A stretch of DNA of 64,000 nucleotides from Hydrolagus colliei (GCA_035084275.1 CM068768.1:7812001-7876000), one strand, 5' to 3'. Shown: positions 12,257-64,000, numbered from the stretch's first letter. Program-made: numbers and translations. The notes: generated from the letters alone by a model not told the origin.

Positions 12257-12302
<46 letters not shown>

Positions 12303-12802
12303 CGTACGGTCCGTTGTGTAATCTGCCCGGCATCTCTTAAAAGAGTCGAGTGGCAGCTTTTTGTCTCTTTCGCCCCAAAAAAAAACATCCAGTCCGTTCA
12401 CGTTTGCGGTATATACCCTGAGACGCGCTTTGAGACAGTCTCGAAGGCGTGATAAGGCGCCGTATCGAACGCAATGAGCGAATAACATTGTCAATGTCAT
12501 TATTTTTATTATTGTATCCTTCCCCCCCCTCCGCACCCGAAGGGGCGCGATCAGTGCTGTTCAGAGAATGAACGAGTTCACGTCCAGTCGATGCTAACCG
12601 TTCACCACCTCCGGAGGGAGCTCCTGAGACGTCCCAGAGCGCTTCAAAGAATATACCGTGAAATAAATTGACTGTATGTATATTTCTGGACGAAACGCGG
12701 CGGCCGATTGCGCACAGCAGCGTCCCCCCCCCCCCACCCCCACACACAGTCGTGGATTGAAACGAGCAATTTTTTTTTGAGGGATTATTATTAGGCGTGT
12801 AC

Positions 12803-14628: not shown

Positions 14629-14661
<33 letters not shown>

Positions 14662-40399: not shown

Positions 40400-40985
40400 T
40401 TTGATTTATATAGCGCCCTCCACCCCGGTGGAGAGCCAGGGGCAGGGGGAGAAAGGTGACTAAAGGCATGGTTGAATAGAAAGGTCTTCAGCTGAGACCT
40501 GAAACTGGGAAGAGAGGGGGAGAGGCGAACGGAGTGAGGAAGAGAGTTCCAACCACTGGGGCGTAGTGGCTGAAGGCGATGGTGGAGCGTAGGATTCGGG
40601 GGACAATGAGGAGGCCAGACCGCTGGAGCAAAACCAATGGGTGCTGGTTTAAGGAGAGAGGAGGTCTGTGAGGTAGAGGGATGCAGAGGAGTGGAGAGAT
40701 TTTAAAACAAGGGTGAGGATTTTGAAATCAATCCTCTCCAGGAGAGGGAGAGCAAATGAAGTCTGGCAAGGACAGGGGTAATGGGAGAGTGAAGTTTGGT
40801 GTGGGTGAGAATGCGGGCGGCAGAGTTTTGAATGAGTTGGATTTTATGGATTGTGGTGGAATGGGAGACCGGCGGGGAGGGCATTGGAATAGTCCAGCTG
40901 AGAGGTGACAAGGGCATGAACCAGGATTTCATTGGCTTTTGGGATGAGATATTGCCGGAGACGGGCGATCCATCGGAGGGAGAAA
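40400..40985 (-). mobile_element. L2-clade LINE fragment
   Basis: [30 protein letters not shown]. Confidence 0.85.
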
Positions 40986-41420
40986 CCTGATGTAAGTTTC
41001 CTTACTTACCGCACCACTGAATAACTAGCAGCAAGTAGGAACACGGTTGCTAATTGATTGGGGAATCTTTTTTTGTTGTAGGAGTAATAATTACTTAAAA
41101 AACCATGATGATGAATAATTAAATAAATTGGTCACTCAATCGACAACTGTTTTTGTGTCCCACAACTGGCTCCCATGTTTCCCCCAGTAAATATACAGTT
41201 ACGTCACTTTACAGTATATTCTCAAAAATGTGATAATGTATATATCAAATGCAAAGATTATTATTCTTATTAATGAGTCATAACGTCTGGTGCAGTTAGC
41301 ACCAGTTAATGATACTCCATGGGTTCCTTGTGATTTTGATGTCAAATATAGTTTTCAGGAAAAAGTAACTGAGCTGGATCGACAATCACTGGAGATCACG
41401 TCAACACGAACCTTTAAACT

Positions 41421-42479
41421 ATGGAATCAAATATTTTCAATAAGAAGATGTACCTCAGAGTTCTTTTATTCACAGTGATTTTACTGTCCATAACATATTA
41501 TTTAATGCCATTTCCATCGCTGTCCATTTTTAACGCTCAAATTTCAGAAAATTCCCCAAACATCCCGTTGTCTATCATAGAGACAAGCAAGGCAACGAAA
41601 GAGCATCACGTTATGAAAACTGATATTGCTTCCAAAGGCTTTTGGACAATTAATTCCCAAGGGCGTCTCGGCAATCAAATGGGGGAGTATGCCACATTGT
41701 ACGCATTGGCCAAATTGAATGGCAAACAAGCCTACATTCCCCATGGCATGGCCAATTACCTGTCTCCCATCTTCAGAATTAACCTTCCCACCCTCCACAA
41801 GAGTATGTGGCAAAGGGTACATTGGACGAACTATAACCTGAATGACTGGATGGAGGAGAGGTACCATCACATCCCTGGAGACTATGTTCAACTCACAGGA
41901 TTTCCCTGTTCATGGACCTTCTACCATCACATCCGAGAGGAAATCCTTCGTGAGTTCACCTTCCATGATCATATCATTGAGGAGGCCAACAAGTACTTGA
42001 GAAGCATCAGCAAAGGGCAAGCCAATGTGACCTATGTGGCTGTCCATGTTCGAAGAGGAGACTATGTGCACACTATGCCAAACGTTTGGAAGGGAGTTGT
42101 GGCCGATAAAGGCTATTTGGAAAAAGCAATGTCTTACTTCAGGAAGAAGTACAGCAACGTGGTGTTTGTGGTGACAAGTGATGGAATGGCTTGGTGCAAG
42201 GACAACATAGATGCTTCCAAAGGAGACGTTCACTTCTCAGGAGATGGACAGTCAAGCAGCCCAGCCAGAGACTTTTCCCTTCTCGCTCACTGCAATCACA
42301 CTATAATGACAATCGGGACCTTTGGTATTTGGGCTTCCTACCTCGCTGGAGGGGAGACTGTCTATCTCTCTCACTACACTTTACCCAATTCACCTTTTTT
42401 AAAACTCTTTAAATACGAGGCAGCTTTCTTACCTGAGTGGATAGGGATCCCGGCTGATCTCTCATCTCTTCTGCCCTAG
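41421..42479 (+). CDS. FUT2: Galactoside alpha-1,2-fucosyltransferase (GT11; FUT1/FUT2/SEC1-like), copy A, 352 aa
   Basis: Single-exon ORF with an N-terminal type II TM segment and motifs [55 protein letters not shown]. The symbol marks the family; 1:1 orthology is not established. Confidence 0.95.
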
Positions 42480-43078: not shown

Positions 43079-43321
43079 NNNNNNNNNNNNNNNNNNNNNN
43101 NNNNNNNNNNNNNNNNNNNNNNNNNNNNNNNNNNNNNNNNNNNNNNNNNNNNNNNNNNNNNNNNNNNNNNNNNNNNNNNNNNNNNNNNNNNNNNNNNNNN
43201 NNNNNNNNNNNNNNNNNNNNNNNNNNNNNNNNNNNNNNNNNNNNNNNNNNNNNNNNNNNNNNNNNNNNNNNNNNNNNNNNNNNNNNNNNNNNNNNNNNNN
43301 NNNNNNNNNNNNNNNNNNNNN
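43079..43321. other. Assembly gap
   Basis: N run. Confidence 0.99.
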
Positions 43322-44655: not shown

Positions 44656-44658
44656 CTG

Positions 44659-45095
44659 AGTTCCAGAGCCTTGGGGCGTAGGAGCTGAAGGCGCACCCAC
44701 CGGTGGTGGAGCGTAGGATTCGGGGGACAACGAGGAGGCCAGACCCGCTGGAGCAAAGTCAACGAGGAGGTCTGAGAGGTAGAGGGATGCAGAGGAGTGG
44801 AGAGATTTTAAAACAAGGGTGAGGATCTTGAAATCGATCCTCTCCTGGAGAGGGAGAGCAAGTGAAGTCTGGCAAGCACAGGGGTAATGGGAGAGTGAAG
44901 TTTGGTGTGGGTGAGAATGCGGGCGGCAGAGTTTTGAATGAGTTGGATTTTATGGATTGTGGTGGAGTGGGAGACCGGTGGGGAGAGCATTGGAATAGTC
45001 CAGCTGAGAGGTGACAAAGGCATGAACCAGGATTTCAACAGCTTTTGGGGAGAAATATTGCCGGAGACGGGCGATCCGTCGGAGGGAGAAACCTG
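44659..45095 (-). mobile_element. L2 fragment, near-identical duplicate of 40545-40990
   Basis: ORFs 44808-45038 and 40702-40932 differ at only a few residues. Confidence 0.87.
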
Positions 45096-45232
45096 ATGTA
45101 AGTTGTCTTACTCACCACACCACTGAATAACTAGCAGTAAGTAGGACCTCAGTTGCTAATTGATTGGGGAATTTTTTTTGTTGTAGAAGTAATAATTACT
45201 TTAAAAACCATGATGATGAATAATTAAATAAA

Positions 45233-45394
45233 TATTTGGGCTTCCTACCTCGCTGGAGGGGAGACTGTCTATCTCTCTGACTAACTTTACCCGATTCACC
45301 CTGTTTAAAACTCTTTAAATACGAGGCAGCTTTCTTACCTGAGTGGATAGGGATCCCGGCTGATCTCTCACCTCTTCTGCCCAAGAAACTCTGA
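45233..45394 (+). pseudogene. Alpha-1,2-fucosyltransferase 3' remnant (about 1.2-kb deletion plus 1-nt frameshift)
   Basis: Matches the FUT 3' end from [15 protein letters not shown] to ...LLPKKL*. TACACT is reduced to TAACT, giving an early stop. It is fused directly to a copy of the FUT-A upstream flank. Confidence 0.9.
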
Positions 45395-46481
45395 ACTAAT
45401 CAGGTTTGGGAATCTTTAGCGCTTCTGATGATTTGGATAGGTTGAAATATAATCCTAAAGTGATTCTGGTACTCTAGCAATTATGTACCTTTCCTATCCA
45501 ATGTTGCACACTTTTTCTCCAAAATCTCCCTCCACTATTTATCAAGCCCCTGCAATCTGGCATCTGTCCTGCCCATAGGTCTGAGACAGCCCTTGTCAAG
45601 GTCACCAACAACATGTTCTCCTTCCCTCTTCTTCTCTCTTTGGATTTAGACTCTTTCTGCCTCTTGTCCTCCATGACCTCTCTGATGCTTCTGACATTCT
45701 CGACCATTCTATCCACCTCAATCACCTTTGCTCAGTCTCCATAACCAGGGTCCTCTCTTTATCCTAGTTGACGCATCGCCTGTACTTTGTCTCGTCTAAT
45801 GTTTCCACTTCCGCTTTACTTTCCTGCCCCTTCACAGTCAACTGTGGAGTACCTCAGGGTTGTTTCCATAGCCTCTTCCTTTTCTCCATCCCCATTCTCC
45901 ATCTTACGTTAGAAGATATAGCTCAGAAATGGTCCATTTTGTCCAACGGGTCTGTGCTGGCTTTTATGCTTCACATGATCCTCCTCCCGCACTTCCTCAA
46001 CTAAGTCTACAAGCATAACCTTCTATTCCTTTTCCCCTCATGTGCTTGCCTAGCTTTCCATTCATTTATTTTTACTTGAAATTTTAATTAAAGTTAATTG
46101 TGTGACTCTAATTAAAATCAGAGTCACATGTTGCCTTGTGACTATTATTCAAATACCCAGAGCTACTGATTAACGTAGATAACAGTGAATCCCAAAGTAA
46201 CTCAATTGTTCAACTCGCCCTGAACCCAAACTTTTTTCTATTCAATTACAGTAACTGTCGACCCCTCGACAGCCGGGGCAGAGACACTCTCGTGAAAGAA
46301 GTGGAATCCTTTTCCGAGATTTCGAAAGGCGCTCTCTCTCTCTCTGCAGCGAAACATAAGAGAAGCAGGGATCTTAAGTGGGGTTAAGCGGCGAGGATTC
46401 CTTCACAGACAGAGACATTTAGAGTTCTTTGCCGTCAACCAATTTTCTCTTCTATGCATTTCCTTTGATGCTTTAGTATTG

Positions 46482-47555
46482 ATGGAGTTCCATTCTTTCG
46501 GTAAGAAGTTGTATGCTGGAGTTCTTTTGTTCAGCGTTATTTTACTGTCCATTGCATATCATTTAAGGCCATTTCCACCACTGGCCATTTGTTTAAAAGG
46601 TAAATTTTCAAAATGTTCCACGAAAGTGAATTTGCCCATCGCAGAGACAAATAAGACAATTAAACAATATCACGTTACGAACTCTGTTATTGCTTCCAAA
46701 GGCTTTTGGACAATTAATTCCATAGGGCGTCTCGGCAATCAAATGGGGGAGTATGCCACATTGTACGCATTGGCCAAATTGAATGGCAAACAAGCCTACA
46801 TTCCCCAGGCCATGGCCAATTACCTGTCTCCCATCTTCAGAATTAACCTTCCCACCCTGCAGGAGAGTATGGGTCAAAGGGTACATTGGACAAACTATAA
46901 CCTGAATGACTGGATGGAGGAGAGGTACCGTCACATTCCTGGAGACTATGTTAAACTCACAGGATTTCCCTGTTCATGGACCTTCTACCATCACATCCGA
47001 GAGGAAATCCTTCGTGAGTTCACCTTCCATGATCATATCATTGAGGAGGCCAACAAGTACTTGAGAAGCATCAGCAAAGGACAAGCCAATGTGACCTATG
47101 TGGCTGTCCATGTTCGAAGAGGAGACTATGTGCACATCATGTCAAAAACTTATATGTTGGGAGTTGTGGCCGATAAAGGCTATTTGGAAAAAGCAATGTC
47201 TTACTTCAGGAAGAAGTACAGCAATGTGGTGTTTGTGGTGACAAGTGAAGGAATGGATTGGTGCAAGGACAACATAGATGCTTCCAAAGGAGACGTTCAC
47301 TTCTCAGGAGATGGACAGTCAAGCAGCCCAGCCAGAGACTTTTCCCTTCTCGCTCACTGCAATCACACGGTAATGACAATCGGGACCTTTGGTATTTGGG
47401 CTTCCTACCTCGCTGGAGGGGAGACTGTCTATCTCTCTAACTACATGTTATCCAATTCACCCTTTTTAAACATTTTTAAATACGAGGCAGCTTTCTTACC
47501 TGAGTGGATAGGGATCCCGGCTGATCTCTCACCTCTTCTGCTCAAGAAACCTTGA
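46482..47555 (+). CDS. FUT2: Alpha-1,2-fucosyltransferase (GT11), copy B, 357 aa
   Basis: ATG at 46482 follows a pyrimidine tract ending ctttag (probable acceptor after a non-coding exon). All GT11 motifs are present. Confidence 0.94.
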
Positions 47556-48603
47556 GCTAATCAGGTTTGGAAATCTTTAGCGCTTCTGATGATTTGGTTA
47601 GGTTGAAATATAATCCTAAAGTGATTCTGGTGCTCTAGCAATTATGTAACTTTCCTATCCAATGTTGCACACTTTTTCTCCAAAATCTCCCTCCACTATT
47701 TATCAAGCCCCTGCAATCTGGCATCTGTCCTGCCCACAGGTCTGAGACAGCCCTTGTAAAGGTCACCAACAGCATGTTCTCCTTCCCTCCCTCTCTCGCC
47801 CTCTCTTTCTCTCTCTCTGGACTAGGACTCTTTCTGCCTCTTGTCCTCCATGACCTCTCTGGTGCTTTTGACATTCTCGACCATTCTATCCAGTTCAGTC
47901 ACCTTTGCTCCGTCTCCGCAACCGGGGTCCTCTCTTAATCCTAGTTGACACACCGCCTGTACTTTGTCTCGTCTAATGTTTCCACTTCCGCTTTACTTTC
48001 CTGCCCCATTCACAGTCAACTGAGGAGTACCTCAGAGCTCTTTCCTTACATTGATCGATGTAACCTCTCAGTTCCGGGTTCAGTCTTGTGAATCACCTTT
48101 CCAAGATTCTTGGTGGTATCATCCATGGATACAGGATTAGTTGCTTTATTGTAATAATATTCTAATAATAATACCAGTAGTATTTGATATCGTTCCTTAT
48201 CACATGATTGAGTCTTCTGCTGTGAAGAGCTTTGAGACATCTAAACAACGTGAATGACGCTCTACTGAAAGCAAGGTTTAAGAATTGTAGATTATTTATT
48301 GTAATGATCTTCAGATGAACGTCTTTTTGAAATTATAAAATGTCTATGGACATTTGTACCTTGTACTCCTTGTACCTTGTTGGCTAATTATTAATTCCAT
48401 CCACTTTACCGATCCCACTGAGCGATTCTGAATACCTTGAGAAAAAACAAAGAAGATTAAGGGCAGCGTTTCAAGCCAGCGCTGTTATCTCACTTCACCT
48501 GAACTCTAGCCCTGCCCACCCTCTTTGACTTTGACTTCCGTGCTAATTCCAGTGTGGTTGCTTCGAAGCACAGCTTGTCCATCGCACCCTCGTCTCGGTT
48601 GCG

Positions 48604-48763
48604 ATGTTTCTCTTCCTGCTGATCGCCCTGTTGCTTTCAGTTGCAATCATTACGGGCAGCTTTTTCTACTGCTTGAGTGCCAACCCTTTCAGCGTTGATG
48701 CCAGGAAACTAGCTCAGCCTCTGGTCCTCGATAGAAGTGCCAGAGACAAGATCCTCAAGCGAG
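48604..48763 (+). CDS. RETSAT: RETSAT-like exon 1
   Basis: [16 protein letters not shown]...NPFSVDAR...ARDKILKR; G|gtgacc. Confidence 0.88.
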
Positions 48764-51700
48764 GTGACCCTTTCTATTGCTCACCAGCGTTTCCTCCTCC
48801 TCAGTTAAGTAGAATTAAATTGTCATAGACTGATTATGTTAGCGGGATCGCTGCTGTACTCAATTGGCTGCGCCGTTCGCCCACAATCGATTCACTTTAC
48901 GGTATAACCTGCGAAACACTTTAAGACGTCGCGAAAACATGATATGGCGCAATGTCAAATGCGTGGAGTCCTGTAGCTCGGTGGTTAGAGCACTTGCCTT
49001 ACAAGCGGGAGACCCGGGTTGGATTCCTTACTCCCCACGCTGCTAATTATCGCTAAAACAATGCAATAACAAAATCGTTCCTTTCAATCCACGGCTATTT
49101 GTGGGGACACAATCGGCTACCGTTTTCCGCCCGCAAAACACGTACAATCAATTCACTTTACAGTAAATTGTGAAGCGCTTTGAGATGTCCAGAAGACGTG
49201 AAAAGCGCTCTATCAAATGCAAGAATTATTATTATTATTTATTATTATTCTAATTACGATTGCACCCTTCACATACCGGGTTCTACCTCTAAGTGCCACT
49301 ACAAGAGGAGATGCGCGGGGGTGTAACAAAGCTTTGCAATTCGCTGTTTAACGAACAGTGAAATCGCGCGTCCAATTTGGATGCCTGTTGTCACCGAGGT
49401 CAGTGCGAACGCTGAGTGTTCCGCGTGTCTGTGCCACTTTGCTCAGGGTTTACCGAGGACAAGGTGCCGGTGGATCTGGACGCCGTGGTGATTGGGAGTG
49501 GGGTGGGAGGCCTGACGGTGGCCGCTGTGTTGGCCAAGGCCGGCAAGCGCGTGCTGGTACTGGAACAACATGACCAAGCCGGAGGGTGCTGCCACACCTT
49601 CAGCGAGAAGGGGTTCGAGTTCGATGTTGGTAAGTCCTCCCATGTTGCCCGTGAAGCACAGGTTGGTTAGAGGGATTGCCTTGCCAGCGAGAGAACACGG
49701 ATTCGATTCCCGGGCCGAGACAGGGTGAAACCTCACAGACACACACACACAAACACCTTCCATAAATACATTATATTTATATACATTAAACTAATAATTT
49801 GGTCACTCAATCCATAATCGTTTACAGGATGCTACTTGGTATAATAGACTATCGCGTTTCGCCCACAAAATTACAGCCGATTCACTTTGCTGTGTTCAGT
49901 GATGTTCAATTGCCAGTGAAATCCCGCGAAGTTCTTTGAGGAGTCTTGAAGGCGTAATAACGCAAGAATTCTTGGCGTTATTCTTGCTGCTACTTATCAT
50001 TCTTACTCCAACCTCGCCCCACTCTACATCCTTCACCTCCTATCGCCTTACCAACCTGCCCGACCCCCTCCCTCCGCTCGGCAGGCTCTGGCCTGCTCCA
50101 CGTCCCCCACCCCACCATTGGCGGCAGCCACTCTGCTCTCAACATCTGGAACTCCATTCCGCTGGCCCTCCGCCTCGACCCCTCCCTGACCCCAAGACTC
50201 AAGTCCCACCTCAAGACTCCTGATGCGATACAAGTGTAATTTTGTTGTTGTTAACATCTGAACATCTCTTGTGACACCGACCCACCCCCTGTGTTTTGGA
50301 GGAATCCACTACGTTGGACAGATGCACAACTGTGGCTTGTTAAGAATAATCCTGGACCAACTCACAGAGGGACAACTGGACTGGGTTCCAATAGACGCTC
50401 AATATGACACAGTCATACTGGGGGCCAATGAGAAGCGTCGCAAATACCAACTTCGCAGCGGGAAACAGGAGTTTGTTGAGACCCTGAAGAGACAGTTTCC
50501 TCACGAGGAGAAGGCGATTGACGAATTCATGAAACTCGTAAAAGTAAGGGTTTTTGGCATCTAATTCATAATGATATACCGGTATATAATTGATGTACCT
50601 GATAATAATTGGTCATTTCAATCCACAACTGTTTGTGGCGGGGGGGACGTCTCTGTGCGCAATTGGCTGCCGCGTTTCGCCCACAAATATACCTTGGGAC
50701 ATCCTCCCAACGTGAAAGGCGCTCCATAAATGTAATTTGTATTGTTGATGTTGTTAAGGAACACGATAAAAAAAGAATTCCGCAGATTTGTTGGTAATGT
50801 GTGTGTTTTGGTTTGCTCACAGCTGGCTTCCAAACGAGTTCCTCTGATGGCCGTGCTCAAAATGATCCCTCTCCCTTTAGCCTTGTTCCTTGTCAAAACT
50901 AATATAATCCACCGGATTTCGTCCATTTTTAAGCTCGCGAGCACGAATGTGACTGAAGTGGTCGATGAGCTGACAGAGAACCGGGACCTCAGAGCGCTGT
51001 TCAGTTACCTCTTTACTGGTAAACAGAGTGTGTGTGTGTGTATGTGTGTGCTTTCCTGCTTTTCTTCATTCTTTTATTAGATCCTGGAGTACTCCTGTAG
51101 CTCAGTGTTCAGATCACGTGCCTCGCAAGCGAGAGACCTTGGGTTTGATTCCTGGACAGGGCAAAAACCACGGGCAAGTTTCCTCACTCCGCGCGCTCTC
51201 TGTTTACCCAGCAGCGTGTAGGAACCCAGTTGTCGGTCAGTCGAAAAGGAAAGTCTCCAGTTGCGATTTGGAGACGGGGAAAAGCTGGGAAAAGGGTGCG
51301 TTGGGGTGAGGCAGTGGGATTGAGGTAGCGAGTGTCTGAATTTAGTGTAGGCAAGGCTGCAATGGATGGGTCGGAATGCTTAGACAAGACTCCAGTTGAT
51401 AATTTAATCAAATAACAGTTGATTATTTTGGCTTGTGATGTGCAGACAAAATGCTGAGCAACAAAAAGACCAAGGTCCATGTATGTACTAAAATCTCATA
51501 ATGTTATTTTCTGAAAACAAAATCTAATCGTGATATTGTTTCAAAACTTCTAAATTGTATCAAAAATAGTTTCAAAAATCTAATCAAAAGGCGAAATTGT
51601 TTAAAACTTTTTTGGTGGGAAAGGGGAAGGGAGACAGTATATCTCACTCGTGGTTCGGGTGAGACGCTGGAAGAAACAACCAACTTGAACACTTAAGTTT

Positions 51701-54700
51701 TCTCAGGTTGACCTACAATCGAATGCAGGATTGTGCAAAGATTCCCTTGTGGTTATTATTAATAATAATAATCCTTGCATTTGATATAGCGCTTTTCACG
51801 TCTTATCGACGTCTTAAAGCGCCTACAGAACACACTGTAAAGTGAATTGACTATATTTGTGGGCGAAACGCGACAGCCAATTGCGCACAGCAGCGTCCGC
51901 CACAAACAGTCGTGGATTGAAAATGACTAATTTTTACTATCATGTCTTTTTATGGGAGGGATTATTAATAGGCATGTGGAGCAAGTAAACTTGCCCAAGG
52001 TTTCGCCCTGATCTGCCTGGGTAGACTTTCTTTGCACAGTGCTTATTAACATGTTTTGTTAGTTCAGACCTATTGAAAAGTTACTGAAATCACGTTGCGC
52101 CCACGCATCCATGCAGGTCAGGCCGAAACTTTGGGCAAGTTTCCTTGCTCCACACGCCTAATAATAATCCCTCAAAAAAAAACAATCAAAAATATTAGTA
52201 ATTTCAATCGACGACTAAGTTTGTGGGGGACGCTGCTGTGCGCAATTGGCTGCTGCGTTTCGCCCACAAATATACAGTCAACTCACTTTACAGTCTATTC
52301 TGTGAAGCGCTTTGAGACGTCGATAAGATGTGAAAAGTTCTATATCAAATGCAGGGATTATTGTTCTTCTGATTATGAATCTGCATTGCAACAAATCTAA
52401 TTTTGCTGTCGATCGAGAGAATCAACCGTCTCCCAAGCGAGCCTGTTCGTGAGGACCCGCGTTCGATTCCCGGTTGGGGGTGAATCCCTAGGCCGTCAGT
52501 TTCCCATTCACTGGAAGAGCATAAGAGATGGCACTGCGCTCCTCTGCTGAAACAGGTAACCAAAAACTAGTTGGACAATCTCTGCCCTCATCAGGTGTGG
52601 CTCCAAAAGACACGAGCTTCGTGATGAACGCCTTGCTGATCCATCACTACAAGAGAGGTGCCTGGTATCCACGAGGAGGGGCCAGCGAGATCGCCTTCCA
52701 CATGATCCCGGTCATTCAGAGAACCGGCGGTGATGTCCTGGTGAGAGCGTCCGTACAAAAGATCCTAACCAACAGCGCCGGAGAGGCGTGCGGTAAGCTT
52801 AACTTCACACCCTTCCTCTGCAGGAGTTCACGTAGCTCAGTTGTTAGAGCGCACTTGCCCTTGCCTTGCAAGCGTGAGGGACCCGGGTTCGATTCCCGGT
52901 TGGGGGTGAATCCCTAGGCCTTAAGTTTCCTTACTCCACGTGCCACAGCTTAACCAGCAATAAAGCAGCATGTTAGTTGATTGCCCGGATGGCATTGCTG
53001 GGATCATCTCCAGTGGGTTCCAATTGGTAGTGTTGTTGGTCGGAGAGAGGGATTTGGCACGGCTCAAACACAATGCAAAGGGGAACCTGGGTTTAATGAG
53101 CAATCCTGTGACTCTCACCCATTCCTCGGCTTGTGTCCGTGTACTTTTACACGCTAAATCTCTACTTGCCCACAAAGGAGAGTCAGGAGAGTTTCGAGGG
53201 GGTTAACGCAGACAGCTTCAAGCTCGTCCCCACCCCTCTCCACAATGATCATGTTCAGGGACTCTCATCAAAGCTATCTGGCACATTGTGTAGAATACAA
53301 AGATCTGAATAAACAATGAAAGATTTCTTATGACACATTCCTCGGGGATAAGCAAAAGCCTCAGCATGCAACACCTCTCTTGTTTTATCATTGAAGCAGT
53401 GTCAGTAATTTAAGTCTTAAAGTCTTTAAGGCTCGTCCCAACAATTAAGATGTCATAAGACGCCTTATCTTAAGAATGCAAGGAATATCATTATTAAAAG
53501 CACATTGCACTTTAGAGTAAAGCCAGTAAAACGCTTTGAGAGAATATGTGAAGGCTTCGAACATTACTGTGATGTGAAAGACAAGAATTGTCGATCAGTA
53601 AACTCTGCCTGTGTTGATGTAGGGGTGACGGTAAGGAAAGGTCAGAACGAGGTCTGTATCGCTGCCCCCCTTGTGATCTCTGACGCTGGAATATTCAACA
53701 CTTACCAACGTCTTTTACCCAAAGAAATCCAAGTTAAGCCCGGTAAGAGGAACACTGATCTGTAACACGGCATAACCTACAGAAATACACAGTCACTACA
53801 CTTTACAGTGATGTCCTGTGAACTGCTTTGGGACAACCTGTTGATGTAGCTCCTGTAGCTCAGTGGTTAGAGCACTCGCCTTAAAAGGGTGAGAGCTGTG
53901 TTCGAATCCAGGCAGGTCAGGGCGAAACCGTGGGCAAGTTTCCTTACTCCACACGCCTCATAATAATCCGCCCCCCAAAAAAGCACAATAATATAAAATT
54001 GGTCATTTTAGTTCCACGACTGTTTGTGGGGGACACTGCGTTTCACCAACAAATATTCAGTGAATTCACTTCACAGTACATTCTGTATAGCGCTTTGAGA
54101 CGTCGTTAAGATGTGAAAAGCGCTATATCAAATGCAAGGATTATTTTTTTATTCTTATGTGAAAGGGTAGAATGTGGGTGTGAGTGTGGGATGAGGGGAT
54201 AACATAGAACCAGGAGTAGGCCATTCAACCCCTTGAGCCTGTTCCGGCATTCAATAAGATCATGGCTGATCTGAGCCTCAAGTGAAATTACCTGCCGTGG
54301 CCCCATAGCCCTTAATACCCTGACCCAACAAATGTATCTATCCACCTCAGCCTTGAAAGTGTGAATGGATGTTGCATTCCACTGCCTTGTAGGGGAATTC
54401 TGGGGTGAAAGGTAGCGTGTTTGGTGAGGCGGTAACATGTGACTCGAGGGGCTGGCATGTGGATTGACTTGAGAGCATGTGGCTAGCGTGATATTGTATG
54501 TGGAAAGCAGCTTGCTCTTAGCTGGCGAGTCTAGTCAGTCTAACGTCAGCAGGTGAATTGAAATGATTCTGTCCGTTTTTTTTCACCAATTACAATCCCA
54601 ATGACAGACAATAGCAGTGGCGTTAATCATTCCTTTACGCTTTCTTCCGTCCAGCCATTCAATCCCAGCTTGCCATGGTACAACACGGAATGGGCTCCTT

Positions 54701-56893
54701 CCTTGTGTTTGTCGGGCTCAGAGGAACGAAAGAGGAACTAGGGCTGAGGTCCACAAATCATTGGATTTACCGAGACAACAACCTGGATGAACTGTGAGTT
54801 AGTTGTCAGAAACATTTATCCTCACCATCAAGGTCCCCCCCGTTGCCCCCTTTCTGCCTCTGTGACCTGCTAAGCCCTTACCAACCCGTCCACTCCCTCC
54901 CTCCGCTCAGCCGGCTCCAGCGTGAATCAAGTGAGCCCTCGCGGCCCACCCCCACCCTCAGCAGTCAGGCCTTCAGCCTTCCCCACCACCACCTTCTTGT
55001 TCTCCAACTCACGTTCCCTTCGCCTCGTTCCCCCACTTGCCCGAATCGAGGCATGTCTCAACACCCTCCTCGTTGAATGTTTTGACATTGGAGGCGATGT
55101 GTGAAGATGCCCGAGATCATTTCTTGTGAATGACCCTCAATGCCAAGGACTTATGGCAATCAGCGTAACAGCAGCAGCAACAATTACATGTGGATAGGGC
55201 CTTTCAGTTTGGGAGGACGTCCCAAGGCGTTGGACAATAAGGGAATTGGACATCGGGAGAGGACATCTTGAAGCATTTTGCGGGGTGCTTAAGTGTGCTT
55301 TTTCCTCCTGTTACAGAATGCAGCGCATGGCGTCCACGAGCAGAGAGGAGTTCACGGACAATATCCCCATGTTGTTCATCACCTTCCCGTCGGCCAAGGA
55401 CCACACTTGGAATGACCGGCATCCAGGTAACGGCAGGCGTCAATCCCGGTTCGGCAGCCTGGAGTTAATAGAACAAAATAGAACGCGTCCACCCCTCCAA
55501 ATGTACAGTCAATTGACTTTACGGTATGTTCTGTAAAGAGCTTTGGAGACGTGACAAGTCACTGTATCAATTGCAAGGATTAGTATTATTATTATTATTA
55601 CTATATAAATGTGCAAGTTGTTGTGGATTTTAACTACCGGATGAGGGGGCAGCTGAGGTGGAATTTGGAGCCCCTGGCTTCGGAATAATTCTCCACAATT
55701 CCGTCACCCAGGGAAGTCCTGTATGACCATACTGACCATGGTGCGTTACGAGTGGTTTGAAGAGTGGAAGGACAAGCAGGTGAAGAAACGAGGGGACGAC
55801 TACGAGCGTGCGAAGATGGCTATAGCTGAGAGACTGATCAACTGGGCCTTGGATCTCTTCCCACAGCTCAAAGATAAGGTACGTGATTCAAAGCCTCGTA
55901 GTGCCTTTCCCATTGGGAGGACGTCTCAAGGAGGGACTTGAAGGAGGGCCGGGGAGGTAGGGTGGGGGGGGGTCCGAGGCAATGGGATTACGGGATGGAA
56001 TTCCAGAGACATTTAAAAGAAACCAGCACAGAGACGGTCAAATTCTCTGCGGACATTGACACGCGAAGAGAAGGAGGAGGGCTACTGCAGAACCTTGTGT
56101 CCTAATCTGTGTTGGTGCCTTTGCAACCGGTTCTAGATTGAATACGTAGAGGCCGCGACACCCCTCACCAACCAGCACTATATTGGTGCAACGCGCGGAT
56201 CGATGTGCGGCGTTGATCAGAACCTCTCTCGCTTCACGCCCGAAGTTATCGCCATCATCAGGGCAAAGACTCCTCTTAAGAACCTGTACCTGACAGGTAA
56301 GAAGTTCCCAAACGTGATAATAATCCTCATAATAATCCTTGCGTTCGATGCAGAATAAATACGCTATGAAGCAAATTGTGGCCGAAACGCAGCAGGCACT
56401 TGCGCACGACAGTGGCCCACAAACTGTCGTGGTTTGAGTGACCGATTTGTTAAACTCTTTTTTTTTTTTTTTGAAGGAATTATTACATTCCCCCGTTCCC
56501 CCCCACCCACCCCGAAAAAGCGATTCTCCCAATCAACTGACAAACTGGTTCCTACTTACTACTCGGTAAACGGAGGCGCGCGCGTAGAGTAAGGAAACGT
56601 ACCCAACATTTTGCCCTGTTTGGGAATCGAACGCAGGTGTCTCGCTTGCGAGGCCAGCGCTCTTGCTGAGCTACGCTTAAATAGTCAGGGTGGATCAATT
56701 TGGCTGGTGTGACGGGAAATTGTTACCGGCAAGAACTTTCTTTGCAGGACAGGACGTGTTTTCCAATGGCCTGGCTGGGGCTGTGCACGGGGGTCTTATT
56801 TGCGCCTCGGGCATCTTAGGCCGGATTGTGTACGTGGACCTCTTGCTCCTTAAGAGAAAATTGAAGGGAAAAGAAATGAAGAAAGAGAAATGA
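48604..56893 (+). CDS. RETSAT: All-trans-retinol 13,14-reductase-like (retinol saturase; phytoene desaturase/CRTISO family), 11 exons, 606 aa
   Basis: Phase-consistent exons: 48604-48763, 49447-49629, 50302-50543, 50823-51018, 52595-52792, 53623-53742, 54655-54793, 55317-55426, 55712-55878, 56137-56296, 56748-56893, totalling 1821 nt. N-terminal hydrophobic signal/anchor, FAD motif VIGSGVGGL...[24 protein letters not shown]-terminal KKEK. It may be a RETSAT-like paralog. Confidence 0.92.
48965..49250 (+). mobile_element. tRNA-derived SINE in RETSAT-like intron 1
   Basis: Head and tail motifs. Confidence 0.8.
49447..49629 (+). CDS. RETSAT: RETSAT-like exon 2 (dinucleotide-binding motif)
   Basis: ctcag|GG ... 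GTTG|gtaagt; GSGVGG motif. Confidence 0.94.
50302..50543 (+). CDS. RETSAT: RETSAT-like exon 3
   Basis: IHYVGQM...[11 protein letters not shown]...[11 protein letters not shown]; tttggag| acceptor, |gtaagg donor. Confidence 0.9.
50823..51018 (+). CDS. RETSAT: RETSAT-like exon 4
   Basis: cacag|CTG ... ACTG|gtaaac; [17 protein letters not shown]. Confidence 0.9.
51755..52362. mobile_element. Inverted SINE pair (- copy 51755-52020, + copy 52110-52362)
   Basis: Both lack the 5' A-box part; about 90-bp spacer. Confidence 0.85.
52595..52792 (+). CDS. RETSAT: RETSAT-like exon 5
   Basis: [29 protein letters not shown]; atcag| ... |gtaagc. Confidence 0.93.
53623..53742 (+). CDS. RETSAT: RETSAT-like exon 6
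   Basis: [19 protein letters not shown]; gtag| ... |gtaaga. Confidence 0.92.
53848..54145 (+). mobile_element. tRNA-derived SINE
   Basis: Intact head and tail; part of the core deleted. Confidence 0.86.
54200..54395 (-). mobile_element. CR1-like LINE 3' end
   Basis: Same family as 6522-6680. Confidence 0.7.
54655..54793 (+). CDS. RETSAT: RETSAT-like exon 7
   Basis: Hand-translated [30 protein letters not shown]; ccag| ... |gtgagt. Confidence 0.9.
55317..55426 (+). CDS. RETSAT: RETSAT-like exon 8
   Basis: [21 protein letters not shown]; tacag| ... |gtaacg. Confidence 0.91.
55712..55878 (+). CDS. RETSAT: RETSAT-like exon 9
   Basis: [20 protein letters not shown]...LFPQLKDK; cccag| ... |gtacgt. 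Confidence 0.92.
56137..56296 (+). CDS. RETSAT: RETSAT-like exon 10
   Basis: Hand-translated [17 protein letters not shown]...TPLKNLYLT; ctag| ... |gtaaga. Confidence 0.92.
56748..56893 (+). CDS. RETSAT: RETSAT-like exon 11
   Basis: [20 protein letters not shown]...KKEK*; ttgcag| acceptor. Confidence 0.92.
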
Positions 56894-57149
56894 AACGAAA
56901 GGCTAACGGTTGGTCGATTTGGCCTTCAGTTGGCCCCTTTCACTCAACAACACACGACATTTTGGACAGCGCCTTTCACGTCAGTGGGGGGGGACGTCAC
57001 AAGGCGGTGGACAATCAGGGACGCGAGCTGGTGGTTGGGATCAGGAAGAGTGGAGGTGAGGGGAGGGTAGGGTTTGGGAGGGTGACAAAGTATATACTGT
57101 ACTATATATATATCTACTGCATCTCAAGATAATACATGAATAATAATGA

Positions 57150-57435
57150 TGATCCTTGCATTTGAAAGAGTGCCTTATCTTGTCATCGAGACGCCTCAAA
57201 GTGTTTCAAGGGATTTACTTTAAGTTCACTCTTTTGGGCGAAACTTTGCTGCCAATATGCATCAATAGCTTTGACCCGCAAACAGTTGTGGATCGAAAAG
57301 AACAATTTATTATTGCGGTTTTTTTGAGGGATTATTATTGTGGAGTAAGGAAACTTGCCCGAGGTTTCACCCTGAATGGAATTGAACCCAGGTCGCTCGC
57401 TTGTAAGGCGAGTGCTCTAACCACGGAGCTACAGG
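57150..57435 (-). mobile_element. tRNA-derived SINE
   Basis: Reverse head ctctaaccacggagctacagg and tail. Confidence 0.8.
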
Positions 57436-58239
57436 GCCCCAAAATATCGATGATTACTTTGGATTAGTGATAGATCTGGTCCCAATTATTCATTTCTCTT
57501 TAAAGATCACGGTGTGTGCTCCTAGAATTCCCTCTGTGGCCATATAGCGCTTTTCACATCTTCTATGCGTCTCAAAGCGCTGTGCAGAATATACGGTAAA
57601 GAGAAATGATTGTATATTTTATGGGTGAAACGCGGCAGCCAATTGTGCACAGCAGTGTCCCACAAACAGTCATGGACAGCCATGCATTTGACGCAATGTT
57701 TCAAGGGCGAGCTTATCATTATGTTGGTTCTCACAGAAAGCGTATTAGTCATGTAGTCTGTGGGCAGCTGTAAGTGGCGACAGTACAGTGTAACAAATCA
57801 GATAAGTCGCTGCCGAACGAGGCCATGAATGTGAACTGCAGCGAAGCCACTACCAATGTGAGCCAAGTTGGTTGTGACAATGACGAGGCATTTGATGTAT
57901 CTGAAATACACGTTAATAGGCAGAGGTTCGGCAGGGTTAACATTGAGCTCTTGTTAATCGGGTTGTCCTAGCTGGACGGGCAGCATGAAAGTCTCCCCGA
58001 CACCAATAATCAATAATATTGAGAATCATCCTTCCATTTTATACAGCAGCCCTATCACGTCTTCAAGGCAGCTTAAAGTCCTTCACAGAATATACGGTAA
58101 AACTTTGGTAAAATTGTGGTTTTAGCTGCTATGACTCCAGGAGTGAATCAGACTCACTCCTGGAATCCACCCAAGCTTTGCCTCTTAGCAACAGGCTTCT
58201 CATGGTTTCCTGAACAAGGTAAAAAGGATGTGCGAGGGA

Positions 58240-58585
58240 GCGCACAAGTTAATGTAGAGCTAGGCCATGGAGGGCTTTGGAGGCGAAGGCAAGGATTTGA
58301 ACTCTACCCTCTGGGGAATGGGGAGATAATGGAGCCGGTGAGGGTGGGGTGGGATAGGGTCATAGAGCCTGGTGCGGGAGAGGAAGCGAGCTACAGGGTT
58401 CTGGATAATCTGCAGCTTGCGGAGGGAAAGCGTTTTGGGAAGGCCGACAAGCAGGGAGTTGGTATAGTCCAGCTTTGATGGCATGAATGCGTGGATGAGG
58501 TTTTTGGCGGAATGAGGGGAGAGGCCTTGGCGGAATCGGGCGATGTTGAGGAGGTGGGGGAAAGGACATGGCGGGTCGTAGCCTC
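58240..58585 (-). mobile_element. L2-clade LINE fragment
   Basis: SKLDYTNSLLVGLP...KLQIIQNPVAR...RLHYLPIPQRVEFK. Confidence 0.85.
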
Positions 58586-58745
58586 ATTCAACCTTTGACA
58601 ATCGCACATTCCATTTTCAACATACCCTCACCAGACAGAGCAAGGGTGATAGATAAAGGAAAGACTGCCTCCTATTGATTTCAAGGAAGTCCATAAGATT
58701 CAAAAATACAATAATGATCAAACCATTTTAATTATGGGCAAATTA

Positions 58746-58890
58746 GAACATAAGAACATAAGAATTAGGAGCAGGAGTAGGCCATTTGGCCCCTCGAGCC
58801 TGCACCCCACCACCCCCCACCACCATTCAATAAGAACATGGCTGATCTTCTAATCTAACTGTACCTACCCATCTTATCCCCATATAATAC
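58746..58890 (-). mobile_element. CR1-like LINE 3' end
   Basis: (agaacata)2 tail plus ggagcaggagtaggccatt. Confidence 0.72.
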
Positions 58891-60826
58891 CAATAATAAT
58901 CCTTGCATTTAACTTAGCGCTTTTCACATCTTATCAACGTCTCAAAGCACTTCACAGAATATACTATAAGGTGAATTGACTGTATACTTGTGGGCGAAAC
59001 CCAGCAGCCAATTGTGCACAGCAGTGTCATGGATTGAAAATGACCAATTTTTATTATTGTGTTTGTTTTTTTGCCGGACGCAGGAAAGTCTGTTCTATTT
59101 AAAAAGGTTCCAAAGATAAATTAGAAGACAAAACACGTCAACATTTGTTCATCTTGAAATGCAGCTTTTTAATAAAAAATATATAGGTCAGGGTTAATGT
59201 TACATCAAGTCCTGTTGCTTAAAAAATATCTGTCGTTACCTGTGTTAGTTAAAACTCACAGCTGTGCAGCACATTCTCAGATGGTTTAATTTACTCCCCT
59301 CCAATTATTCCTTCTCTTCCGAGGGGTATGGAGTTACTGCTGGGAGCAGCGTCCCCCACAAACAGGCATGAGACCACATATCCCTTAATCTCTTTCTCTA
59401 TAATAAATCTATCAATCTCAGTCTTGAATATGTTCAAAGACTGAGCATCTACAGCCTTTTGGGGTAGAGAATGCTATAAATTAGGTGGCAACATCATAGA
59501 AATAACAGTGACTGGACAGAATTTCATCATTGTACAGGGTTCAAGTGATTACAAATGTATGTTTCACAGCTGGCAAGCCTGAGTAATAGATAATATTTTA
59601 CAACTAATTGTCCTTATTTCAACAACAACAAAAAACTTATATTTGTACTACATATATGGAAGTCCTCCTGACACAAAAGGCACTTTACAAGTGTAATTTT
59701 GTTGTTGCTGTTGTTAAAATTTTAATGTTTATCCTTGCATCTTGTATTGCGATCTTCACATCTTCTAGTCGTCTCAAAGTGCTTCACAGAATATACTGTA
59801 AAGTGAATCAACTGTATAGTTGTGGACGAAACGTGGAAGCCAATGGCGCACAGCGGTGTCCCACAAACAGTCATGGATTGAATGGACCAATTTTTTTTTA
59901 AGGGATTATTATTAGGTGTGTGGAATAAGGAAACGTGCCCAAGGTTTCGCCCTGACCAGCTTGGAGTAAAATCCAGGGTTTATTGAAGCCCAAATACCAA
60001 AGGTCCCAATTCTATTCTGTTGTGGGCGGCACAGATTGGAGGGGTTCAAAGAGGGAATGGCAGGAAGGAAAAGAGCAAAAAAAGTGGGATGCAACAATTT
60101 GTTGCAGGGCCTTGGAGAGCAATGGGAGGTTCGAGATGGGGGGGTGGCTGGAGAGTAGGGATGGATCCAGGGAAGGTTCGTTTCAGGATGGGAGTGATGA
60201 TGGCGGGTTTTACGGGGGGTGGCAGTGGCAGTGGATAAGTACAGGAGATGGAGCAGTGAACAGATTCCCCACTAAGTACACTGTGCGTTTTTTAGTGCAA
60301 AATAGTCATAGCCAATCGCCAATTGCTCACAGCAGTGTCCGACCAAACAGTCGCACATTGCGTGACCAAATAATTCCTTTACTTCCTCATTCCCCTGATC
60401 CATTCAAGTTGACTCTGAATGGCATTATTACCCATACAAATTGTTGGTATTGTGCAATTGTGTCTGGCTGACTGCGTGTCCTCCCAAACTGCACCTAATC
60501 ATTAACAGAATTAGGAAAACAGAATGAGTTCCCTTCAGAGAGAGAGAGAGAGAGAAAGAGAGAATCCATAATGCATTCGATTCCAACTATCCTTCTCTGG
60601 AATTTCTACGTATAGGTGGGATGCTTGGAACTCTCAATTTGGTCTGGGTTAGCCTTAAGCATGGTGATGTGTTTCCGCATGTGTAAGACAGCTGGCTGAC
60701 CAAAGCAAAATGTTATGTCCTTTTGTTAGAATTGAAACCACCCCCACCCCACACCCCCACCTCCTTATTGCATACGAAACTCAACCACATCACCAGAAGC
60801 GCTAACGATTCCCAAACCTGAATAGC

Positions 60827-61897
60827 TCAAGGTGTTTTGGGCAGAAGAGGTGAGAGATCAGCCGGGATCCCTATCCACTCAGGCAAGAAAGCTGCCTCAT
60901 ATTTAAAGAGCTTTAAAAAGGGTGAATCAGGTAAAGTGTAGTTAGAGAGATAGACAGTCTCCCCGCCAGCGAGGTAGGAAGCCCAAATACCAAAGGTCCC
61001 GATTGTCATTACCGTGTGATTGCAGTGAGCGAGAAGGGAAAAGTCTCTGGCTGGGCTGCTTGACTGTCCATCTCCTGAGAAGTGAACGTCTCCTTTGGAA
61101 GCATCTATGTTGTCCTTGCACCAAGCCATTCCATCACTTGTCACCACAAACACCACGTTGCTGTACTTCTTCCTGAAGTAAGACATTGCTTTTTCCAAAT
61201 AGCCTTTATCGGCCACAACTCCCTTCCAAATGTTAGGCATAGTGTGCAGGTAGTCTCCTCTTCGAACATGGACAGCCACATAGGTCACATTGGCTTGCCC
61301 TTTGCTGATGCTTCTCAAGTACTTGTTGGCCTCCTCAATGATATGATCATGGAAGGTGAACTCACGAAGGATTTCCTCTCGGATGTGATGGTAGAAGGTC
61401 CATGAACAGGGATAACCTGTGAGTTTAACATAGTCTCCAGGGATCTGACGGTACCTCTCCTCCATCCAGTCATTCAGGTTATAGTTCGTCCAATGTAGCC
61501 TTTGCCACATACTGTCGTGGAGGGTGGGAAGGTTAATTCTGAAGATGGGAGACAGGTAATTGGCCATGGCCTGGGGAATGTAGGCTTGTTTGCCATTCAA
61601 CTTGGCCAATGCGTACAATGTGGCATACTCCCCCATTTGATTGCCGAGACGCCCTATGGAATTAATTGTCCAAAAGCCTTTGGAAACAATAACAGAGTTT
61701 GTAACATGATATTGTTTAGTTGACTTGTTTGTCTCTGCGATGGGCAAATTCACTTTCGTGGAACATTCTGAAAATTGACCTTTTAAACGAATGGCCAGTG
61801 GTGGAAATGGCCTTAAATGGTATGCTATGGACAGTAAAATAACGCTGAACAAACAAACTCCAGCATACAACTTCTTACCGAAAGAATGGAACTCCAT
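60827..61897 (-). CDS. FUT2: Alpha-1,2-fucosyltransferase (GT11), copy C, 356 aa
   Basis: First ATG at 61897 ([13 protein letters not shown]), homologous to the copy B start. Motifs intact. Confidence 0.94.
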
Positions 61898-62966
61898 CAA
61901 TACTAAAGCATCAAAGGAAATGCATAGAAGAGAAAATTGGTTGACAGCAAAGAGCTCTAAATGTCTCTGTCTGTGAAGGAATCCTCGCCGCTTCACCCCA
62001 CTTAAGGTCCCTGCTTCTCTTATGTTTCGCTGAAGAGAGTGAGAGAGAGCGCCTTTCGAAATCTCGGTAAAGGATTCCACTTCTTTCACGAGAGTGTCTC
62101 TGCCCCGGCTGTCGAGCGGTCGACAGTTACTGTAATTGAATAGAAAAAAGTTTGGGTTCAGGGTAAGTTGAACAATCGAGTTACTTTGGGATTCACTGTT
62201 ACCTACGTTAATCAGTAGCTCTGGGTATTTGAATAATAGTCACGAGGCAACATGTGACTCTGATTTTAATTAGTCACATAATTAAAATTAATTTCAATTA
62301 AAAAATTAAAAATGAATGGAAAGCTAGATAAGCACATGAGGGGGAAAGGAATAGAAGGTTATGCTTGTAGACTTAGTTGAGGAGGTACTGGAGAAGGATC
62401 ATGTGGAGCATAAAAGCCAGCACAGACCCATTGGGCCAAATGGACCATTTCTGAGCTATATCTTCTAACATAAGATGGAAAATGAGGATGGAGAAAAGAA
62501 AGAGGCTGAGGAAAGAGCCCTGAGGTACTCCACAGTTGATTGGGAAGGGGCAGGAAAGTAATGCGGAAGTGGAAACATTAGATGAGACAAAGTACAGGCG
62601 GTGTGTGAACTAGGATTACGGAGGACCCCTGTTGTGGTGATTGAGGTAGATAGAATGTTCGAGAATGTCAAAAGCATCTGAGAAGTCATGCAGGACAAGA
62701 CGCAGAAAGAGTCCTACTCCTGAGAGAGAAGAAGAGGGAAGGAGAACATGTTGTTGGTGACCTTGACAAGGGCTGTCTCAGACCTATGGGCAGACGGATG
62801 CCAGATTGCAGGGGCTTGATAAATAGTGGAGGGAGATTTTGGAGAAAAAGTGTGCAACATTGGATAGGAAAGGTACATAATTGCTAGAGTACCATGATCA
62901 CTTTAGGATTATATTTCAACCTAACCAAATCATCAGAAACGCTAAAGATTCCCAAACCTGATTAGC

Positions 62967-64000
62967 TCAGAGTTTCTTGGACAGAAGAGGTGAGAGATCA
63001 GCCGGGATCCCTATCCACTCAGGTAAGAAAGCTGCCTCGTATTTAAAGAGTTTTAAAAAGGGTGAATTGGGTAAAGTGTAGTTAGAGAGATAGACAGTCT
63101 CCCCTCCAGCGAGGTAGGAAGCCCAAATACCAAAGGTCCCGATTGTCATTATAGTGTGATTGCAGTGAGCGATTAGGGAAAAGTCTCTGGCTGGGCTGCT
63201 TGACTGTCCATCTCCTGAGAAGTGAACGTCTCCTTTGGAAGCATCTATGTTGTCCTTGCACCAAGCCATTCCATCACTTGTCACCACAAACACCACGTTG
63301 CTGTACTTCTTCCTGAAGTAAGACATTGCTTTTTCCAAATAGCCTTTATCGGCCACAACTCCCTTCCAATCATTTGGCATAGTGTACACATAGTCTCCTC
63401 TTCGAACATGGACAGCCACATAGGTCACATTGGTTTGCCCTTTGCTGGTGCTTCTTAAGTACTGGTTGGCCTCCTCAATGAGATAGTCATGGAAGGTGAA
63501 CTCACGAAGGATTTCCTCTCGGATGTGATGGTAGAAAGTCCATGAACAGGGATAACCTGTGAGTTCAACATAGTCTCCAGGGATGTGACGGTACCTCTCC
63601 TCCATCCAGTCATTCAGGTGATAGTGGGTCCAATGTACTTTGTTCCACAAACTCTCGTGGAGGGTGGGAAGATTAATTCTGAAGATGGGAGACAGGTAAT
63701 TGGCCATGGCCTGGGGAATGTAGGCTTGTTTGCCAATCAATTTGGCCAATGCGTACAATGTGGCATACTCCCCCATTTGATTGCCGAGACGCCCTTGGGA
63801 ATTAATTGTCCAAAAGCCTTTGGAAACAACAACAGAGTTTGTAACGTGATGTTCTTCAGTTGTCTTGTTTGTCTCTGCGATGGGCAAATCCACTTTTGTG
63901 GAACATTTTGAAAATTGACCTTTTACACGAATGGCTGGTGGTGGAAATGTCCTTAAATGATATGCTATGGACAGTAAAATAACGCTGAACAAAAAAACTC
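62967..64000 (-). CDS. FUT2: Alpha-1,2-fucosyltransferase (GT11), copy D; 5' end outside window
   Basis: Open frame from the window edge within the TM segment to ...LLSKKL*. Motifs intact. Confidence 0.92.

Follow-up and report, generated by a model that had tools for sequence, protein, structure and literature searches.

In a window of 64,000 nucleotides from Hydrolagus colliei (GCA_035084275.1 CM068768.1:7812001-7876000; "the window" below means this whole stretch), FUT2-like genes (FUT-A, FUT-B, FUT-C, and FUT-D, hereafter also A to D) were found in two facing groups around a RETSAT-like gene. We consider it probable that this arrangement is old and that gene conversion has maintained patches of likeness among the FUT2-like genes; that they form the arms of a flipping cassette is the unlikely reading. 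The locus is best read as an ordinary gene cluster, in which FUT2-like genes undergo birth and death with patchy conversion around an old RETSAT-like neighbour. An earlier reading by a model given the DNA alone (the sequence-only reading) had described the RETSAT-like gene as enclosed in the loop of an inverted FUT duplication that could flip.

Layout of the FUT locus

Self-BLAST of the window indicated an inverted match between 45233-47599 and 63129-60783 on opposite strands (93.2% over 2374 columns, E=0), and the loop between the inverted matches was 13,183 bp. A second inverted register of the FUT unit was observed between 46519-48046 and 64000-62509 (90.7%). FUT-C and FUT-D formed a tandem match of period 2140 bp (93.9% over 1080), and FUT-A (41421-42479) matched C, D, and B at 91.9%, 91.8%, and 90.9%, respectively. 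This 2.14-kb tandem unit lies on both strands, as A, a stub, and B on the plus strand and as C and D on the minus strand, where it runs past the window end. Since the identity of the arms is close to that of the tandem copies and to that of A and C, the arms are not a special pair; the inverted match is one register of the 2.14-kb tandem unit and no dedicated arm pair. The arms were also asymmetric, with 490 bp more spacer after B and with unique DNA from about 44 bp past the stop codon of C. The order of the elements was MPP2-like gene (+), A (+), gap, stub (+), spacer, B (+), partial spacer, RETSAT-like gene (+), C (-), spacer, D (-), and window end. The parts of the FUT locus are as follows.

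40544..41128, plus strand: upstream flank of FUT-A, duplicated at 44658-45232 (88.6% BLAST match; core with 30 mismatches in 489 ungapped columns)
41421..42479, plus strand: FUT-A, FUT2-like, intact, 352 amino acids in a single coding frame (PF01531, E=6e-112); N-terminus divergent, catalytic part apparently homogenised
44658..45232, plus strand: copy of the FUT-A upstream flank, abutting the FUT stub (alignment; junction with a 1-nucleotide overlap)
45233..45394, plus strand: frameshifted FUT pseudogene stub of the last ~54 codons, its 3' end being of the D type (translation; 160 of 166 columns equal to D; flank alignment)
45395..46481, plus strand: spacer belonging to the 2.14-kb unit (differs from the C-D spacer at 75 of 1064 columns)
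46482..47555, plus strand: FUT-B, intact, 357 amino acids, with C-like 5' flank and N-terminus (PF01531, E=3e-108)
47556..48046, plus strand: truncated second spacer copy (matches 62966-62509 and 45398-45870)
60827..61897, minus strand: FUT-C, intact, 356 amino acids, tail-to-tail with the RETSAT-like gene (PF01531, E=6e-112)
61898..62966, minus strand: spacer between D and C (spacer alignments)
62967..64000, minus strand: FUT-D, open frame leaving the window at its end (Pfam match; 93.9% to C in tandem)

The window contained four N gaps, one of them at 43079-43321, and none across 43322-64000. The left edge of the block at 45233 was a deletion-type junction, at which the copy of the A upstream flank runs straight into the frameshifted stub; the stub therefore appears to be a copy of the A unit minus about 1.2 kb.

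The geometry given by the sequence-only reading was largely borne out, namely the inverted FUT block around a 13-kb loop, the match of the non-coding spacer to its reverse complement (45398-46484 against 62963-61895, 992 of 1089 columns, 91.1%), and a complete, single-copy, 11-exon RETSAT-like gene in the loop (see below). Its "FUT 3' end" in both arms held in part: the stub on the plus strand is real but frameshifted, whereas the minus-strand copy belongs to the intact gene D.

Two further observations concern the unit itself. The middle of the spacer contains what looks, from its motifs, like a decayed reverse-transcriptase fragment of a long interspersed element (45480-45900; copies at 47640-48046 and 62880-62500), duplicated with the FUT unit. 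A pyrimidine-rich stretch ending in AG stands just before the starts of B (46464-46481) and C (61898-61915, minus strand), and a similar site lies about 60 bases before the start of A (41340-41358). These are possible splice acceptors, and a shared upstream non-coding 5' exon might be spliced onto each FUT coding exon.

Family membership of the FUT genes

All four genes (4/4) matched PF01531 (Glyco_transf_11) with 362-374 bits against a curated cut-off of 23.9. H139, R141, R142, G143, D144, and Y145 were invariant in 93 sequences including the four window copies. We take the H-x-R-R-G-D (RRGD) motif to be motif I of family GT11. Motif I of GT11 enzymes has been implicated in GDP-fucose binding (PMC8439653). 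An N-terminal membrane anchor of type II was indicated in A, B, and C, with a best 19-residue hydropathy window of 1.9-2.0 starting at residue 10-14; the test was limited to these three copies, as the start of D lies outside the window. The FUT-B model had a mean predicted local distance difference test (pLDDT) score of 89.6, and its top Foldseek matches were AtFUT1, POFUT1, NodZ, and FUT8, so that the predicted fold fits the alpha1,2/alpha1,6/O-fucosyltransferase superfamily. No solved structure related by sequence to a window FUT was found.

The proteins closest to FUT-C were FUT2-like proteins of Callorhinchus milii (74-84%), followed by those of sharks and reptiles, which scored lower (best 120 of 582 matches). 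The nine FUT copies of C. milii and the window formed one clade with support of 100, and in the tree the window FUTs were not one-to-one orthologues of FUT1, FUT2, or SEC1. Their sequences predict that they attach alpha1,2-fucose to mucosal glycans, forming blood-group-H-type sugars.

Four C. milii FUT accessions were consecutive (XP_007899605-608). At 61014-61297, the depth of single FUT contigs was 136 against 23-29 for unique contigs in run X1 (~5x) and 345 against 39-47 in run X5 (~8x). This hints weakly at additional copies outside the window and at differences between samples, depth not being equal to copy number.

Probable conversion among the FUT copies

In synonymous p-distance, FUT-A stood 0.24-0.28 from the other three copies over the N-terminus, and 0.06 over the catalytic part. 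Between A and C, synonymous differences amounted to 11/40 in the N-terminus and 11/174 in the catalytic part (Fisher p=4e-4), and the same test gave p=8e-4 for A-D as well as for A-B. No comparable drop was seen for B-C (p=0.56). The longest perfect inverted matches were 217 and 162 bp for A-C, 195 bp for A-D, and 159 bp for B-C; C and D shared 195 bp perfectly in tandem. Codon permutation gave p=0.007 for A-C, 0.005 for A-D, 0.0007 for C-D, 0.029 for B-C, 0.17 for A-B, and 0.21 for B-D, of which A-C, A-D, and C-D were significant after correction for six comparisons and B-C was not.

Individual residues pointed in the same direction. A shared tract carried a D..A pair in A, C, and D, and E..D in B and in all five C. 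milii copies; its DGMA form occurred only in A, C, and D among the 93 sequences. Because B is without it, the tract likely passed between the strands, either directly or via a lost or unseen copy. Furthermore, at four catalytic columns all four window copies shared one fixed residue and all five C. milii copies another, and the FUT copies grouped by species (Shimodaira-Hasegawa-like approximate likelihood ratio test, 83 and 84). Taken together, these comparisons support conversion across the two strands, mainly of A with C/D. In mammals, conversion among alpha1,2-FUT paralogues is documented and is focused on the catalytic domain (PMC4398370).

Several points weigh against this interpretation. 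The codon permutation ignores uneven constraint along the protein, and the species grouping was moderately supported in a quick tree. With a run test of the Sawyer type, the lowest p over the six pairs was 0.028 (A-B) when 71 polymorphic catalytic sites were used and 0.066 with 18 silent sites; neither value is significant after correction. In addition, further copies may lie outside the window or within the gap at 43079-43321, so that donors and directions are provisional.

Lineage-specific duplication with no conversion could be read from the same data, the catalytic likeness being due to purifying selection, a fast N-terminus, and chance parallel changes. It would agree with the non-significant run test in the catalytic part and with most variable sites being singletons, and a recent expansion also predicts species-wise clades. 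However, the fourfold drop in distance concerns synonymous sites and appears for A only, B-C being without it. Moreover, the variant of B described below has an insertion common to one C. milii paralogue, yet B has the four species-specific columns in common with A, C, and D, so that no single tree fits. We therefore regard duplication without conversion as quite unlikely.

Conversion and chimeric FUTs had also been proposed by the sequence-only reading for the two arms. Both are supported here, chiefly between A, which lies outside the claimed arms, and C/D, whereas the pair within the arms, B-C, gave the p of 0.029 that fails correction and the p of 0.56 mentioned above.

A variant segment in FUT-B

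After the invariant RRGDY, 91 of the 93 FUT2-like sequences had a segment of nine residues. FUT-B (about 47130-47160) and C. milii XP_007899607 alone had ten, with a shared core IMSKT, in place of the nearly invariant P150. Amino-acid differences among the four copies were concentrated in two places, the variant segment and catalytic residues 55-69 (9 of 15 positions, p=0.0065). The variant stretch was the least confident core part of the FUT-B model (pLDDT 63-70), and a contig of run X6 (46909-47196) spanned it without gaps. These results suggest one of two origins: FUT-B may be an ancient paralogue, perhaps with a function of its own, that was overwritten outside this segment, or it may have been copied from an unseen member of the array that bears the variant. 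The segment may represent a trans-species functional variant.

Age of the inverted duplication

The mismatches between the spacers of the two arms were unevenly spread (p=1e-4), with 1-4 per 100 close to the stop codon, rising to 8-16 in mid-spacer and falling to 2-5 ahead of the following start. The mid-spacer divergence was 54/478 (11.3%), and the arms overall diverged by 6-7%. The unique loop DNA of runs X7, X6, X1, and X5 differed from the window by 4.1%, 2.2%, 0.27%, and 0.36%, respectively, as calculated from 6-8 contig pieces each (six unique pieces for X6 and for X7), only pieces more than 90% alike being counted. Since the mid-spacer divergence exceeds that of orthologous DNA in the related runs, the duplication likely predates the species splits of X6 and X7 and is no haplotype copy.

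The contig comparison covered 4 of 12 runs with eight records per run and 15 of ~19,740 joints, among which SINE (short interspersed element) copies dominated. The contigs were short and ended inside the arms, and none of the 15 listed joints lay within a FUT gene. The junction between the loop and FUT-C was bridged by contigs of X1, X5, and X7 at unique-contig depth; X1 may derive from the source sample. This bridging does not bear on flipping, since a crossover within the arms leaves the inner junctions intact. On the other side, and counting against our main reading, the left junctions at 45233 and 48046 were bridged by no listed contig with at least 31 letters on each side; record 25 of run X7, which passes 48046 by just 10 letters, was not counted.

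These unbridged junctions, together with the four N gaps, one of which (43079-43321) lies just left of the block, would fit an assembly artefact, the left block then being the right array put in a wrong place or taken from a second haplotype. Such an artefact is highly improbable. The arms differ by 7% overall and 11% in mid-spacer, against the 0.27% and 0.36% by which X1 and X5 differ from the window; B has a variant of its own, which is also present without gaps in the X6 contig and in C. milii; and no N occurs from 43322 to 64000.

Possible flipping of the loop

Crossover between inverted FUT copies (B with C, or A with C/D) might flip the 13-18-kb loop in living populations and create chimeric FUTs. 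The geometry permits this, the inverted copies having perfect matches of 217, 195, 162, and 159 bp, and the mosaic of FUT-B could also stem from a past flip. Human polymorphic inversions with repeats of just 1.6 and 2.7 kb have been described (PMC3961182), and in a study of 41 genomes recurrence was driven by the length of the repeats and not by their identity (10.1101/2021.12.20.472354). However, the same study reports repeats of at least 10 kb in 23 of 32 recurrent human inversions, and the arms here are 2.37 kb at 93.2% with a longest perfect match within them of 159 bp. We regard flipping with such arms (2.4 kb, 93%) as unlikely, and the locus is a weak inversion candidate.

Comparison with known inversions is consistent with this view. 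The FLNA-EMD inversion (HsInv0389) and the primate X palindromes are like the present locus in that one or more single-copy genes lie between inverted repeats, and they undergo recurrent inversion and arm-to-arm conversion; their arms are 11.3 kb and 8-140 kb, respectively, more than 99% identical, and closer to each other than to the orthologous arms of other species (PMC3961182, PMC8327919). Here, inverted homology does flank a unique loop, but the arms are asymmetric, form part of a tandem array, and fall far from the long, near-identical arms of such systems (at least 8 kb at >99% in palindromes, at least 10 kb in most recurrent inversions). Their divergence (6-7% overall, 11.3% in mid-spacer) is also greater than that between species (2.2% and 4.1% in loop DNA), the reverse of X palindromes (PMC8327919). 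In HsInv0209 (KRTAP5-10/KRTAP5-11), about 12 kb flanked by duplications within a gene family (94% mean identity) are polymorphic for orientation. Unlike the present locus, where no perfect stretch exceeds 217 bp, this inversion has 7-kb repeats that include a 782-bp stretch at 99.9%, in which the breaks likely occur.

The RETSAT-like gene and its neighbourhood

The gene in the loop was resolved as follows.

48604..56893, plus strand: RETSAT-like gene, 11 exons, 606 amino acids, with all 10 introns GT-AG and one open frame
48604-48763, 49447-49629, 50302-50543, 50823-51018, 52595-52792, 53623-53742, plus strand: exons 1-6
54655-54793, 55317-55426, 55712-55878, 56137-56296, 56748-56893, plus strand: exons 7-11

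It is single-copy in the window, as tblastn with its protein and three relatives matched only these exons. The protein was 72-76% identical to shark and ray RETSAT-like proteins (all-trans-retinol 13,14-reductase-like) and 48-50% identical to mammalian RETSAT, and homology was full-length (48-76% identity, ~560-610 columns) to all 52 of 52 family members. In a quick, midpoint-rooted tree of 53 rows (the window protein and 52 hand-picked proteins), the window protein grouped with nine shark and ray proteins (98) inside a clade of amphibian, reptile, bird, and ray-finned fish "RETSAT-like" proteins (98). Mammalian and bird RETSAT formed a separate clade (99), and Rhea had one gene in each clade. 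On this sequence evidence, the loop gene is a RETSAT-like paralogue and no orthologue of human RETSAT. Some members of its clade are annotated as "inactive", and all-trans-retinol 13,14-reductase activity of the loop protein is putative. The gene is likely a passenger in the cluster.

The sequence-only reading had argued from the positions of human MPP2, FUT1/FUT2, and RETSAT, which we take to be on three different chromosomes. That argument compared the wrong gene: because the loop gene falls in a separate RETSAT-like clade outside mammalian RETSAT, the human comparison rests on a paralogue.

FUT2-like and RETSAT-like genes were on equal-sized contigs in 8 of 8 elasmobranchs with both accessions, and in five of the eight the accession or locus numbers were within two of each other, as listed below.

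Hemiscyllium: XP_060704586/587
Mustelus: XP_078079079/080
Chiloscyllium punctatum: chiPu_0006922/6923
Amblyraja: XP_032890683/684
Narcine: XP_069760710/712

These findings suggest that the two genes are likely neighbours across sharks and rays and that the neighbourhood is old, so that "enclosed" by an inverted duplication is an overstatement. Against this, accession adjacency failed in the other three (S. canicula, C. plagiosum, and Stegostoma), and adjacency shows neither order nor strand. No C. milii member of the RETSAT-like clade of the window was present among the protein matches listed; the gene may have been lost, broken, or missed there.

In Sceloporus and Rhineura, FUT2-like and RETSAT-like genes were on equal-sized contigs with accessions 3737 and 1717 apart, and the listed genes were on different contigs in Ambystoma, Pelobates, Rhinatrema, Pleurodeles, Emydura, Pelodiscus, and Chelonoidis. 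The neighbourhood claim is therefore confined to cartilaginous fish, and none is made for tetrapods. Squamate pairs on equal-sized contigs, from three species, were P0054/P0254, P0012/P0278, and P0071/P0291, with accessions far apart in the two that were checked.

A second RETSAT-like clade from sharks and rays (P0264, P0269, P0189, P0258, and others) was present on the same contigs and absent from the window. Its C. punctatum member, GCC28487, stands six accession numbers before the FUT GCC28493, and in Mustelus the clade sits between FUT accessions (XP_078080079-82, 088, 090).

Other features of the window

The left neighbour of the FUT locus is listed below.

25956..34480, plus strand: 3' exons of an MPP2-like MAGUK gene, whose start lies further left (exons read; PDZ exon match)

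For its PDZ exon (28035-28262), the best of seven matches was the MPP2 PDZ domain (PDB 2e7k, E=5.8e-31), and MPP6 was not among the seven; its L27 exon gave no usable match in the ESM Atlas. Between 34480 and 41400, nine short ATG frames of more than 55 amino acids were present, none recognisable by eye and none used in searches. An inverted 254-bp pair (12264-12517 and 14415-14668, 97.6%, about 1.9 kb apart) is probably intron DNA of the MPP2-like gene. A SINE-like element of ~300 bp with an AT-rich tail occurs in dozens of copies in the window at 70-88% identity and in both orientations, for example at 32717-33049, 52104-52365, and 53851-54148, and forms an inverted pair at 51757-52020 and 52104-52365, 84 bp apart.

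Proposed history

Direct observation covers the layout, the open frames of all four genes, the 2.14-kb period, the measured divergences, and the mosaic pattern. From these we infer the following history. A FUT array beside the RETSAT-like gene would be ancestral in cartilaginous fish. Copies would have been born and have decayed through unequal crossover and deletion, the stub (the A unit minus ~1.2 kb) being an example. At least one old inverted transfer would have brought a C/D-type unit onto the plus strand; one old inversion or inverted copy event is needed because the C/D-type unit stands on both strands. Non-allelic repair between copies 13-20 kb apart may then have replaced tracts some hundreds of bases long, chiefly within the catalytic region and close to it on either side, and may have carried a single derived tract into A, C, and D. 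Some segments, among them the FUT-B variant next to the donor-binding motif, are likely spared by selection.

A broader view would join these elements into a glycan-diversifying locus of chimaeras, in which conversion across the inverted loop reshuffles catalytic segments among copies, a functionally distinct B-type enzyme with a change next to the GDP-fucose motif has been selected since before the Callorhinchus split, copy number varies from one individual to another, and the loop occasionally flips. We hold this combination to be improbable; if true, the locus would be a cartilaginous-fish counterpart of the secretor polymorphism.

Significance and comparison with known systems

A 2014 vertebrate survey reported FUT1/FUT2/SEC1 to be absent from fish genomes save for a coelacanth sequence (PMC5377540), and H-type glycans have been found in the mucus of dogfish and skate and not in bony fish (PMC10532229). 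The multi-copy FUT2-like clusters of chimaeras, sharks, and rays are likely the source of those H-type glycans, and they would move the FUT family back to early jawed vertebrates. Literature searches, which covered few subscription papers, found no paper on this FUT cluster; the genes of relatives are annotated in RefSeq. The value of the locus lies in glycan evolution, as a compact case of apparent conversion across opposite strands beside a variant that escaped it.

The mammalian FUT1/FUT2/SEC1 cluster, whose consensus gene order is given in Table 1 of PMC5377540, is similar in that its paralogues lie together, partly on opposite strands, conversion being concentrated in the catalytic domain and the transmembrane and stem regions being divergent (PMC4398370). 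Its neighbours are NTN5, MAMSTR, and BCAT2, whereas those here are the MPP2-like and RETSAT-like genes. The present locus also differs in its compact 2.14-kb unit and in its at least four intact copies with 88-92% catalytic identity to their neighbours, which stand in facing groups around an unrelated gene. The FUT2-like/RETSAT-like clusters of sharks and rays and the FUT2-like cluster of C. milii, known from RefSeq annotation, encode the closest proteins (C. milii 84% to FUT-C; shark RETSAT-like 75%) and have several FUT copies per species, and in sharks and rays the two kinds of gene are likely neighbours.

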